64,000 bases of DNA, from positions 3,429,125 through 3,493,124 of the forward strand of contig OZ244823.1 in assembly GCA_965220365.1 (NCBI GenBank). The letters run 5' to 3'. Positions 9,658 through 12,490 of the stretch are shown one piece after another. The notes beneath the pieces are model-generated. The model had not been told where the DNA came from and made no database searches. It saw only the letters and a program-made list of their open reading frames with translations. The position numbers and the translations under genes are program-made. The number at the start of each line of letters is the position of its first letter. The first letter of the stretch is position 1. The stretch comes from Rhodothermales bacterium. Its GTDB lineage: Bacteria > Bacteroidota > Rhodothermia > Rhodothermales > Bin80.

Positions 9658-9713
9658 ATGAATGAAAAACGTTTTTGTCTGGGGAAATCCCTCCCCGCCC
9701 CCTCTAAAAAATT
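9658..9713 (+). pseudogene. Detached 5' end (18 codons) of the Cys-rich lipoprotein gene split by the IS1595-type element
   Basis: ATG at 9658 gives MNEKRFCLGKSLPAPSKK. Removing 9714-12490 joins it in frame to FHFGHFSRGLIPVCITLLAISFGLSIASC at 12491 onward, which gives a complete lipoprotein signal peptide. Confidence 0.55.
9706..9713. repeat. 8-bp target-site duplication AAAAAATT (left copy) of IS1595-type element 1
   Basis: Identical octamer at 12483-12490, immediately outside the 25-bp inverted repeats. Confidence 0.8.
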
Positions 9714-9726
9714 GGTAATTATGTAC

Positions 9727-9900
9727 TTAACTGTAACCCTTGCTGGTTTCAGAATCCGATTTCGATTTTTTCGGCTTGGATTTCAAGCGCTGCAGTACCT
9801 GGTTAGGCGTAAGCCCACCGTAACGCGGGTTCGGACTGGGAGTGTTCATGTCGCGGTTGAACTGCGCTAATATCTCGGATTTGGTCTTTTCTTGTTTCAT
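9727..9900 (-). CDS. Small conserved ORF (57 aa) at the left end of the IS1595-type element
   Basis: Too short for the ORF track, so translated by hand: MKQEKTKSEILAQFNRDMNTPSPNPRYGGLTPNQVLQRLKSKPKKSKSDSETSKGYS. ATGA overlap with the endonuclease stop, and its own stop lies inside the inverted repeat. A related ORF sits at the same position in element 2 (54098-54283; shared NP[RK]Y[GN]G[LI]T). Confidence 0.4.
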   Translation of the reverse strand: MKQEKTKSEILAQFNRDMNTPSPNPRYGGLTPNQVLQRLKSKPKKSKSDSETSKGYS

Positions 9901-10559
9901 AACATTCTCTCCAAGAATGGTGGCACGTCTTGAATCGGAAGTGCCTTGCTAATAGGTGCAGTAGTGCGTTCAAATCTGCGTAACTGTTGCTTTTTGGTTT
10001 CTGTATAGTATGGCCCGTCAACAATCGCAAGAAGTATAATTCCGCTGTTATTTCCACATTGCTGAAAATATCGGAGCATAGCTTGTACTTCCTGAAATTG
10101 GCTGTCTTGATTCCCCCCACTTTCACGTGTATATTTGTGCGAAGCGTATACGGTGTACTTCCCAGTTTGCCATCGAAAATCTAAGGATTTTACCCCCTGA
10201 GGACGTTTCCCTTGCCTTAGCTCTCCGTCTGTTGCAATATACCATGCTTTCGGGCCTGATGGGGGGAGACTATCAAAGTCGTGTATAACATCAATATCTT
10301 CAAGCCAAGCTGCCGCTATACGCTCATGAAACTTCGTGCGTCGTGGTTCTTTGGCGAACCATGCGGCAAACATTCCATCAGATCGGATTCGATCTTTTAT
10401 GGACTCTTCGGAATAACCAAAACGCCATTTGTAGGTCTTGATCTTTTTCAAGATATTTTGATCTTGAGTATTCAATCGCATTTTCACTTGATCTGCACTT
10501 TCTTTCCATGCAGCCTGTTCTAGCATTTCATAATCTGGTGGGCTATGCATTATGAACAA
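9897..10559 (-). CDS. Putative type II restriction endonuclease (partner of the adjacent methyltransferase)
   Basis: 220 aa, overlapping the methyltransferase stop by 17 nt and coupled by ATGA to the next ORF. Candidate PD-(D/E)xK-type block SLDFRW...VYASHKYTRESGGNQDSQ. The assignment rests on context plus this weak motif. Confidence 0.55.
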   Translation of the reverse strand: MFIMHSPPDYEMLEQAAWKESADQVKMRLNTQDQNILKKIKTYKWRFGYSEESIKDRIRSDGMFAAWFAKEPRRTKFHERIAAAWLEDIDVIHDFDSLPPSGPKAWYIATDGELRQGKRPQGVKSLDFRWQTGKYTVYASHKYTRESGGNQDSQFQEVQAMLRYFQQCGNNSGIILLAIVDGPYYTETKKQQLRRFERTTAPISKALPIQDVPPFLERML

Positions 10560-11478
10560 TTCCTCTCGCTAACTGCCAGTCAAGCCGTCTCCGATACTTT
10601 CCATCTTTGCGGAGCCCTTTATAGCAAGTCATTAAAACATCATGTGTTTGATTCCTGAAATTGTCAAGAAACGTATTCCATTTATCAATCTCAATCTCAC
10701 CATCAACGGCAAGTTTCGTAACGTGTCGGCCAGTATGCTTAACATTGTAATTTCCTAATTCATGCACAGGGCAGAACCGGATTGAAGCTTCGGTTGTATT
10801 GTCTAGGGCATAAAGTCCTACATTACCGTTGGGAGCATTGAACTTGATTTTTACGCCATCTGTTTTAGGTTGAGGACATTCAGATTCAATGTCGATCAAT
10901 TTGCCAACAAACTCTCTGCCAATCCAAATCTCGGCATTTGACACTTTTTCGGGACCAAATAACGCAAGTCCAACTGGATGCCCAGTATCAGTAAAAAGAC
11001 ATGAAGTAATCGACACGAAACTTTGCAAGCGTTCTCTAAATAACTTAGTGCGAATAAATGATTCGGGAATAAGGGCCGCTACCCAGTTACAGTGTGCCAA
11101 ACAGTTATCAAGTGCATATTGATACAAATTCCCATATTTCCCCTGGGGAAAATCAAGACTTTTATAGGTGGCGATATTGCGTGCTAACCAAGGGGGATTC
11201 GTTACACATACTTCGTAACCTTCTGGGAAATGTGCAAGGGTATCCCGATACCCAACATTCTGATTCGCAGGTTCAATATCGTACGATTGGAATGATCCAC
11301 ATAGATCCATCCCTTGAAGATGCTCAATGATCCGATTACTGCCCGCAAATGGTTCTAGCAACTCACTATCCCTCATGCCAGAATCTTTAGCCCACTTCAA
11401 AAAGGCAACATGTCCGAAAGGATTTTCCTCGGTGAAGTATTGCCCGTGTTTCTTCTTATGCAACACCTCTCCTGTCAT
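10543..11478 (-). CDS. N6-adenine DNA methyltransferase (NPPW catalytic motif)
   Basis: Start set at the ATG at 11478 (MTGEVLHKKKHGQYFTEENPF), which forms an ATGA overlap with the transposase stop. SAM-binding LEPFAGSNRII and catalytic CVTNPPWLA motifs. Confidence 0.8.
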   Translation of the reverse strand: MTGEVLHKKKHGQYFTEENPFGHVAFLKWAKDSGMRDSELLEPFAGSNRIIEHLQGMDLCGSFQSYDIEPANQNVGYRDTLAHFPEGYEVCVTNPPWLARNIATYKSLDFPQGKYGNLYQYALDNCLAHCNWVAALIPESFIRTKLFRERLQSFVSITSCLFTDTGHPVGLALFGPEKVSNAEIWIGREFVGKLIDIESECPQPKTDGVKIKFNAPNGNVGLYALDNTTEASIRFCPVHELGNYNVKHTGRHVTKLAVDGEIEIDKWNTFLDNFRNQTHDVLMTCYKGLRKDGKYRRRLDWQLARGIVHNA

Positions 11479-12410
11479 GCGATCAGGTCTTGATACTTGA
11501 GGCGTTTCCCGACCATACACGCGACCACGTGTTGCATTTGCGATAGCGTGTCCATCTCGCGGATATTGTGCTTACCCGCAAACTCTTGAATATACAGGTT
11601 CAGGTGTTTCTTACTCAACTGGTGATACGTCCCGTGAAATGCACGTTTGAAGTGCGACCAGAACCCTTCCAGTCCGTTCGTATGTGCCATGCCGTTGACC
11701 CATTCGCCTACGGAATGAGTAACGGTTTCGTGATCCATCTCCAGCAAGCCCAGATAGGACGTAGATTCGTCTGTATAGACCATTGAACCGGGCTTGGTAT
11801 TGTCATATACAAAGCCTTTCAGCGTAGGCCCATCTGTACTCTCAACCACTTTCGCACGTATCTCACCGGTCTTGCGGTCTTTGATTCCTGCCACCGCAGC
11901 CTTGCCTACGGTTCCTCTGCCGGCGTTGAGTTTCTTGTCTTTGTGCTTGTTCTTTTCAAGCCCACCGATATATGTTTCGTCTGCTTCAACGGGGCCTTCA
12001 AAGTCAACGCCAAAGATCGGTTCAAAGGACGTGCGGATCCGCTGTAACATGAACCAGGCCGTGCGCTGGGTTACGCCCAGGTCGCGGTGCAACTTCATAC
12101 TGGACGTGCCTTTGAGTGCCGTCAATTCCAAGTAGATTGCCCATACCCACTTGAGCAAAGGCAGGCGAGAAGATTGCAGGAGCGTCCCTGTACGTACAGA
12201 GAAATACCGCTTGCACGGACGGCAACGGTATGGCATTCCATTACCGTTGTTGGTCTCGTAGGTGTTCATGCCACCACAATGCGGACACATGCGGCCGTTT
12301 GGCCAGAATCTGGATTCAAACCACTTTGTAGCAGAATCTTCATCAGGGAAGTTCTGCATAATGTCCATAAAGGTCAATCCTTTACGGTGTGCTTTTCCGG
12401 GTCCGGTCAT
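11475..12410 (-). CDS. IS1595-family (ISXO2-like) DDE transposase with an N-terminal zinc ribbon
   Basis: CPHCGG...YRCRPCKRYFSVRTGT zinc ribbon, then SSMKLHRDLGVTQRTAWFMLQRIR, then ADETYIGG..KNKH. Paralogue of 55678-56649. Confidence 0.9.
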   Translation of the reverse strand: MTGPGKAHRKGLTFMDIMQNFPDEDSATKWFESRFWPNGRMCPHCGGMNTYETNNGNGMPYRCRPCKRYFSVRTGTLLQSSRLPLLKWVWAIYLELTALKGTSSMKLHRDLGVTQRTAWFMLQRIRTSFEPIFGVDFEGPVEADETYIGGLEKNKHKDKKLNAGRGTVGKAAVAGIKDRKTGEIRAKVVESTDGPTLKGFVYDNTKPGSMVYTDESTSYLGLLEMDHETVTHSVGEWVNGMAHTNGLEGFWSHFKRAFHGTYHQLSKKHLNLYIQEFAGKHNIREMDTLSQMQHVVACMVGKRLKYQDLIA

Positions 12411-12482
12411 GATATTCTTTGGCTAATGTACTACTTTATACGCAGAAACCTACATAAGGTTACAGTTAAGTACATAATTACC

Positions 12483-12490
12483 AAAAAATT
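12483..12490. repeat. 8-bp target-site duplication AAAAAATT (right copy) of IS1595-type element 1
   Basis: Identical to 9706-9713. Confidence 0.8.

Follow-up and report, generated by a model that had tools for sequence, protein, structure and literature searches.

A predicted Type II restriction–modification cassette carried inside the ends of an IS1595-family insertion sequence

Introduction

Insertion sequences (IS) of the IS1595 family that carry passenger genes form an established category, the transporter IS (tIS), a concept that PMC3129680 credits to Siguier et al. 2009. Two of them, MTnSag1 and tISCpe8, have been characterised as mobilizable IS1595-family elements with a DDE transposase of that family, 25-bp repeats, 8-bp duplications and, inside the ends, genes that do not serve transposition (PMC5704250); the title of Lyras et al. 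2009, as cited there, names tISCpe8 a lincomycin resistance element. In Neisseria gonorrhoeae NCCP11945, a unit bounded by 26-bp perfect inverted repeats and an 8-bp duplication has also been described (Furuta, Abe & Kobayashi 2010, PMC2853133, Fig. 11b), and its genes are a truncated Type IIG restriction–modification (R-M) gene, an S gene and a COG3677 transposase-like gene judged probably inactive (PMC2853133). Here we analyse element A, which occupies positions 9714–12482 of a 64-kb window (the whole stretch of DNA under study, from a Rhodothermales bacterium; all coordinates below are positions in it unless a sister locus is named). We consider it very likely that element A is an intact passenger-carrying IS1595 element with an exchangeable methyltransferase–nuclease cassette, most likely a Type II R-M system. 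That IS1595 members with passengers were already known had been stated in the original prediction for this locus, a reading of the DNA letters alone, and agrees with the published descriptions (PMC3129680, PMC5704250).

Results

Element A is sharply delimited and interrupts a lipoprotein gene

Element A measures 2,769 bp between the two copies of an 8-bp target site duplication (TSD), and its termini are perfect 25-bp inverted repeats (IRs), named IRL and IRR for the left and right end in gene orientation. The features at its borders are these:

9658–9713, plus strand: 5′ fragment of the lipoprotein gene, codons 1 to ~18; open reading frame (ORF) restored by in silico excision
9706–9713, strand not applicable: left TSD copy, AAAAAATT, identical to 12483–12490
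9714–9738, plus strand: IR at the transposase-distal end (IRR), GGTAATTATGTACTTAACTGTAACC, 25/25 match to 12458–12482
12458–12482, minus strand: IR at the transposase-proximal end (IRL), perfect GGTAATTATGTACTTAACTGTAACC
12483–12490, strand not applicable: right TSD copy, AAAAAATT
12491–13241, plus strand: 3′ part of the lipoprotein gene; ORF restored by in silico excision

Both the 8-bp duplication and the perfect 25-bp repeats enclosing 2769 bp had been read correctly in the original prediction. We found no third copy of GGTAATTATGTACTTAACTGTAACC in the 64-kb window with up to three mismatches allowed, and no match to it in 100 shuffled sequences. In a repeat search the inverted match measures 27 nt because the AATT of the duplication prolongs the palindrome; the outer ends of the element read GGTAATTAT / GGGAATTAT.

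Deleting positions 9714–12490 in silico (the element and one TSD copy) joins 9658–9713 to 12491–13241, and the resulting empty site is a 268-amino-acid (aa) lipoprotein ORF that starts with the ATG at 9658, has a lipobox/lipoprotein signal sequence and is 43% identical to a paralogue at 58306–57629. Because the excision restores this ORF, the boundaries of element A are fixed independently of the repeats. Element A thus interrupts the lipoprotein gene near codon 18. The paralogy reaches past the coding sequence: 12491–13463, comprising the interrupted gene and part of its downstream region, aligns with 57380–58264 as a diverged paralogous copy at ~77% nucleotide (nt) and 43% aa identity.

Four overlapping genes lie between the repeats

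The element contains four tightly packed ORFs, all on the minus strand, in the order transposase, methyltransferase, nuclease, small ORF:

11475–12410, minus strand: IS1595-family DDE transposase with N-terminal zinc ribbon, 311 aa (Pfam, NCBIfam)
10543–11478, minus strand: predicted gamma-class N6-adenine DNA methyltransferase, 311 aa from its ATG (motifs, AlphaFold2 (AF2) model, Foldseek)
9897–10550, minus strand: putative Type II restriction endonuclease with PD-(D/E)xK fold, 217 aa (weak Tsp45I match, AF2 model, Foldseek)
9727–9900, minus strand: trailing small ORF with a TP-x-x-V motif, 57 aa (homologues in sister elements, no Pfam or PADLOC match)

Most of the gene arrangement first proposed stands: the four genes are co-oriented and overlapping, stop and start codons form ATGA at both 11475–11478 and 9897–9900, and the small ORF ends inside the left inverted repeat, its stop codon (9727–9729) falling within 9714–9738. 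The exception is the junction between methyltransferase and endonuclease, for which an overlap of 17 nt had been given. That figure presumes the alternative nuclease start, a TTG at 10559 that yields 220 aa; we prefer the ATG at 10550 because a GAGAGG Shine-Dalgarno sequence lies upstream of it and because it fits the conserved ‘MHxPPDY’ N-terminus of homologues, so that the overlap is probably 8 nt. Since the four genes are co-oriented and each stop overlaps the next start, and since these overlaps are conserved across diverged elements, the genes probably form one operon read as a single transcript. The G+C content is 42–44% in the cassette of element A as against 51% in the transposase gene and ~52% in the host.

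The transposase matches Pfam DDE_Tnp_IS1595 (PF12762; 7.3e-38) and Zn_ribbon_IS1595 (PF12760; 8.7e-09), and covers the full NCBIfam model transpos_IS1595 (NF033547; 1.3e-50, positions 1–215 of 215). An alignment of nine transposases of this lineage shows no variation at D144, D214, E248 and K255 (E+7), which, judged by position, are presumably the catalytic residues. Element A therefore shows what defines an IS1595 member, namely an ISXO2-like catalytic domain with a zinc ribbon, conserved D/D/E/K residues, IRs and an 8-bp duplication, and the profile matches together with the 25-bp IRs and the duplication confirm the family named at the outset.

Sister elements carry transposase and cargo together

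Units of 2.77–2.84 kb with the same end structure and the gene order transposase, methyltransferase, nuclease, small ORF occur elsewhere too. Locus L002 splits an AP_endonuc_2 gene and has the TSD TTAATTAT; L004 and L011 each have their own (TTTATTTT and TTAATTTA); and L005 and L006 are identical copies in one genome, with TSDs AAAAGTTA and CTAATTTT. A Nitrosomonadaceae metagenome-assembled genome (MAG; OZ252054.1, L018–L026) has eight copies, which are no more than 3 nt apart over 2,831 bp; a different perfect AT-rich 8-bp duplication flanks each of them, and 8-bp duplications are present in more than 20 sister insertions. As the sister units lie at different sites with TSDs of their own, transposase and cargo move together as a whole unit. 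The sister copies thus have passenger genes inside their ends that travel with the transposase, which is the hallmark of a tIS.

These units, along with the IRs and the in silico excision, bear out the earlier claim that the R-M module sits inside the IS termini. Movement of the transposase without its cargo, which had been named as the observation that would count against that claim, is not what the relatives display: L002, L004, L005/L006, L011 and the eight MAG copies all moved with the cargo. Additional copies with different flanks, which had been suggested as something to look for, exist in the form of sister elements at other sites; element A itself was seen at a single locus. One candidate for an independent insertion, L001, was dropped on proving to be the window locus itself. 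The view that so tight a fusion of R-M genes and transposase is unusual was overstated, because this is the standard architecture in a whole clade of passenger-carrying IS1595 elements.

An ordinary IS might in principle lie beside a resident R-M locus, with IRs that enclose the R-M genes by coincidence or in a one-off composite. The sole argument for such chance adjacency is the prior expectation that IS insertions near R-M genes are common, whereas a four-gene unit with the same ends and a length of 2.77–2.84 kb recurs at unrelated sites in different phyla with its own 8-bp duplications, and excising the whole unit in silico restores the host gene. On both grounds we rejected this explanation, which we regard as extremely improbable.

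Rhodothermales and Bacteroidota MAGs are the source of the nearest relatives of element A, and many relatives belong to MAGs of putative sponge-type taxa. In three of the eight OZ252054.1 copies an extra G at element position 1713 frameshifts the methyltransferase and leaves the nuclease intact; in a ninth copy (L025) most of the transposase gene is missing and there is no matching duplication.

The cargo encodes a predicted N6-adenine methyltransferase and a nuclease-fold protein

The motifs EPFAGxN (motif I) and TNPPWLA (motif IV) are invariant in the alignment of the methyltransferase family, so that the protein has both the S-adenosylmethionine-binding and the (D/N/S)PP(Y/F/W) motif expected of a Type II R-M methyltransferase. 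Its AF2 model has a predicted local distance difference test score (pLDDT) of 83.8, and the best Foldseek match of this model is M.TaqI (E 1.4e-8, probability 1.00), followed by type I HsdM, M.BseCI and CamA. Model and motifs alike indicate a gamma-class N6-adenine DNA methyltransferase. The window protein alone gave no significant Pfam match; 25 of 38 family members weakly match the Pfam Eco57I methylase model. The family is large, comprising more than 1,369 clusters at 90% identity, and every homologue of either cargo protein that is named in its source is a ‘hypothetical protein’, most having no name at all.

For the 217-aa product of the next gene the AF2 model has a pLDDT of 93.5, and the top Foldseek matches in the PDB are nearly all PD-(D/E)xK proteins: the Can2 nuclease domain, MGME1, the R.BspD6I small subunit (probability 0.98), FokI, RecU, Hjc and McrC. 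The sequence matches Pfam Tsp45I (PF06300) with E 4e-4 over model positions 171–251. This model is also matched by 14 of 37 family members, and for P0015, a relative with 53% identity, the score of 26.6 bits exceeds the curated cut-off. We accordingly describe the window protein as a putative distant Tsp45I relative and not as a curated member of that family. Residues D108, D124, H138-K139, E143, Q148 and D149 are conserved in the family, which has ~1,046 representatives when clustered at 50% identity. Absence of a nuclease fold or of any R-M relative had been named at the outset as grounds for abandoning the endonuclease assignment of this ORF (then given as 220 aa); the model quality, the PD-(D/E)xK matches and the Tsp45I-related family speak to the contrary.

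We surveyed the neighbourhoods of the nuclease gene with one genome per species (68 loci), and in essentially all of them a DNA methyltransferase gene immediately precedes it. Closer relatives pair with the NPPW-type methyltransferase whether or not a transposase gene lies upstream, relatives at 33–40% identity pair with a beta-class ‘DPPF’ methyltransferase, and in ~20 loci the pair occurs without any transposase. Pairing with two unrelated methyltransferase classes and the transposase-free loci are what would be expected of a true R-M nuclease and argue against a role in transposition. NCBIfam gave no match for the cargo proteins of element A. No nuclease relative turned up in a plasmid collection, whose nearest transposases are at most 47% identical; the three of these that we inspected all have non-R-M neighbours.

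Several results weigh against our interpretation of element A. The Foldseek matches of the nuclease are weak (E 2.6e-3 at best, TM score ~0.3–0.4), and its Tsp45I score of 20.4 bits lies below the 25-bit gathering cut-off. No textbook (D/E)xK triad is obvious: the conserved strand reads xHK, and an acidic residue would have to be supplied from elsewhere. Neither the two cargo proteins nor the family profiles found anything meaningful among PDB sequences, and the PADLOC R-M models matched neither the methyltransferase nor the nuclease, nor the small ORF. A scan for promoters and terminators found no more sites than in shuffled sequence. Finally, element A was seen at this one locus only, so that any current mobility of its own is conjectural.

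Some of these points would also suit a cargo that is not a classical R-M system, in which a nuclease-fold toxin, a repair or recombination factor or a transposition helper would accompany an orphan or regulatory methyltransferase. The weak similarity of the nuclease to characterised restriction enzymes in sequence as well as structure, its non-canonical catalytic motif, the lack of PADLOC matches and the uniformly uninformative names of the homologues, where named at all, are in keeping with this. We nevertheless consider it improbable: the nuclease family is consistently paired with DNA methyltransferases of two unrelated classes, the pair stands without a transposase in ~20 loci so that the nuclease would not be a transposition factor, and the cargo slots of sister elements hold textbook EcoRI- and HaeIII-type R-M pairs. 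On the reading we prefer, a Type II R-M cargo, the two families, which PADLOC does not see, probably make up a Type II R-M family of wide distribution.

The R-M pair behaves as an exchangeable cassette on an IS backbone

The window contains a second passenger-carrying IS1595 element of the same lineage:

54069–56720, minus strand: element B, with transposase, methyltransferase cargo and trailing small ORF

Element B is bounded by 24-nt repeats, GGGAATTATAAC(C/T)GAAACTGTAAC, and encodes a transposase of 323 aa and, as the trailing gene, a homologous small ORF. As cargo it carries the gene for a beta-class N6/N4 DNA methyltransferase whose C-terminus shows a weak Mrr-like nuclease domain; this gene is split into ORFs of 150 aa and 328 aa by a frameshift in a run of nine G (gene strand) at 55239–55247; with eight G, a single ORF of ~477 aa results. 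The frameshift could reflect phase variation or a homopolymer sequencing error. The diverged lipoprotein paralogue adjoins element B, so that both IS1595 elements stand beside copies of one small gene cassette.

L002 is a mosaic of the two window elements. It is close to element B in its IRs, transposase gene (75–80% nt and 75% aa identity) and small ORF, and to element A in its genes for the methyltransferase and nuclease (80–86% nt, 82% aa); identity switches at the transposase/methyltransferase and nuclease/small-ORF boundaries. Together with element B, this mosaic points to a backbone of transposase and small ORF into which the R-M pair fits as a cassette, evidently exchangeable between the IS backbones of the lineage.

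The trailing small ORF is present in element B, L002, L004, L005, L011, L018, L059, L076, L079, L107 and L109, whatever the cargo, and the encoded proteins share a loose ‘…(G)RPxK…TPExVAKA…’ motif, with nothing significant in Pfam. In several (alignment A4: L076, L079, L107, L109 and others) a ‘GRP(V/I)K’ stretch resembling an AT-hook precedes TPExVAKA; the small ORF of element A has no GRP motif. A DNA-binding or targeting role is conceivable because of the AT-hook-like stretch, the AT-rich 8-bp targets and the AT-rich ends.

Scanning metagenomes with the transposase profile gave 80 loci, and ends were resolved for 23 elements of 1.5–4.1 kb, nearly all with ORFs downstream of the transposase gene. 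L107 carries M.EcoRI and R.EcoRI (Pfam 1e-129 and 1e-146; TSD TATTTTTA), and L110 a Dam-like methyltransferase with a RE_HaeIII-family enzyme (Pfam). The cargo of L076 is HSDR_N and N6_Mtase (Pfam) followed by a specificity-subunit-like ORF without a Pfam match, that of L079 is N6_Mtase and Methylase_S (Pfam), and that of L109 is N6_N4_Mtase (Pfam) with an ORF that we could not name. Other elements encode large cargo proteins starting ‘IEPIDAPFD…’, two of which (in L071 and L117) look KilA-N-like, by eye only.

Joint enrichment of R-M genes and transposases has been reported for sponge-associated and similar symbiont genomes. It is a plausible idea, short of an even chance in our estimation, that the lineage with ends GG(G/T)AATTAT, this transposase and the TPExVAKA small protein is a dedicated shuttle, its cargo slot refilled or swapped by at least five to six unrelated R-M families (NPPW-methyltransferase/Tsp45I-like, EcoRI, HaeIII, N6_Mtase-plus-S-subunit and Mrr-fusion types). 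Bursts such as the eight copies seen here in one genome would then directly cause that co-enrichment in symbionts, and the small protein would be a lineage-specific transposition or targeting factor.

Decay of the element and persistence of its cargo

We found no convincing methyltransferase–nuclease cassettes that lack a transposase and are flanked by both IRs, that is, mobile insertion cassettes. Solo IR-like motifs are present in L012, L027, L031, L034 and L039; in L027 (~6656) and L031 (~6917) a solo IR-like end (GGGAATTA…) lies just upstream of the methyltransferase gene, and L016 (6606–7067) has a partial transposase gene. This suggests that some ‘stand-alone’ copies of the R-M pair are decayed IS-borne ones.

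Such remnants bear on who profits from the cargo. As the original prediction suggested, the R-M pair might mainly benefit the element through post-segregational ‘addiction’, in which residual nuclease kills cells that lose the last copy as methylation dilutes, and the IS would thereby be stabilised. Type II R-M systems are known in general to behave in this way, and the mobility and selfishness of R-M systems are discussed in PMC2853133. Many methyltransferase–nuclease loci are free of a transposase, L016, L025, L027 and L031 among the related loci keeping a partial transposase gene or a solo IR-like end, and this fits an R-M pair that outlives its transposase. Against addiction, no single copy would be addictive in the MAG with eight copies, where the extra G in the methyltransferase gene is moreover tolerated in three of them, and non-R-M (KilA-N-like) cargo on the same backbone implies that an R-M system is not required for the element to persist. 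We regard addiction as a doubtful account of the main benefit.

Other mobile elements and genes in the window

The neighbourhood of element A is rich in mobile elements. Two IS4-like copies of 1,473 bp each (52370–53842 and 59605–61077), 99.86% identical and in direct orientation, encode a 398-aa DDE_Tnp_1 transposase and bracket 53843–59604, which holds element B and the lipoprotein paralogue operon, in a composite-transposon-like arrangement. On the minus strand, an IS110-family transposase gene (14600–15736) adjoins a group II intron D1-D4 match (RF02005, 15939–16162, 164 bits). Further genes encode a protein with a Por_Secre_tail (type IX secretion) sorting domain (16211–17851) and a SusC-like TonB-dependent receptor (44093–46795); both suggest that the host probably belongs to Bacteroidota, in agreement with the MAG sources of the nearest relatives of the element.

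Discussion

We propose that the 25-bp IRs are presumably recognised by the zinc-ribbon DDE(K) transposase, which would insert the 2.77-kb unit as a whole at AT-rich targets of 8 bp, and that element A would have landed in this way in codon ~18 of the lipoprotein gene. The two-gene cassette between the transposase gene and the backbone small ORF would most likely be a Type II R-M system of a family without a name, related on its nuclease side distantly to Tsp45I. Its methyltransferase would shield a specific site in host DNA, and its nuclease would cut incoming DNA that lacks the modification, with the methyltransferase gene probably placed before the nuclease gene in a single operon.

Element A is a fully delimited example of a complete (predicted) R-M system mobilised by the smallest kind of transposon, and the comparison set adds that the R-M pair can be swapped in a fixed slot of the IS backbone and that units can multiply within one genome. 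This has a bearing on censuses of defence systems, on the interpretation of metagenome methylomes and on symbiont genomes rich in R-M genes and transposases.

Among individual proteins, the window methyltransferase is like M.TaqI in having motif I before motif IV, an NPPW/NPPY catalytic motif and a C-terminal target-recognition domain; it differs in being ~80 residues shorter and only 11–13% identical. With the Tsp45I system the cargo shares a methyltransferase partner and the C-terminal ~85 residues of the nuclease, which align to the C-terminal part of the model, whereas the window nuclease has 217 aa against 260 model positions, an unrelated N-terminal helical half and the sub-cut-off score.

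As a unit, element A is a new example of an already described kind of element. The ISNwi1 or ‘ISNwi1+’ subgroup of IS1595 in ISfinder has ends of the form ggnnatTAT and ‘+’ members of 1.7–4.7 kb with passenger genes; the outer ends of element A and the lineage sizes of 1.5–4.1 kb are compatible with that description, and we assign no named IS. Element A resembles tISCpe8 and MTnSag1 in its IS1595 transposase, ~25-bp IRs, 8-bp duplication and passenger genes, and differs in that its cargo is a methyltransferase–nuclease pair followed by a conserved trailing small ORF. The gonococcal NCCP11945 unit is likewise small and combines IRs and an 8-bp duplication with R-M genes and a transposase-like gene of the IS1595-type COG3677, and its cargo is broadly similar to that of L076 and L079, with N6_Mtase and then a specificity-subunit-like ORF (Pfam-confirmed in L079 only). 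There the R-M gene is truncated, whereas all genes of element A are intact; the pair in element A consists of a separate methyltransferase and nuclease of a different family, predicted to be Type II; and the multi-copy sisters of element A indicate a currently mobile unit. What is new, then, is an uncharacterised R-M family with all genes of the element intact, recent multi-copy spread, and a cassette slot accompanied by a conserved small ORF.

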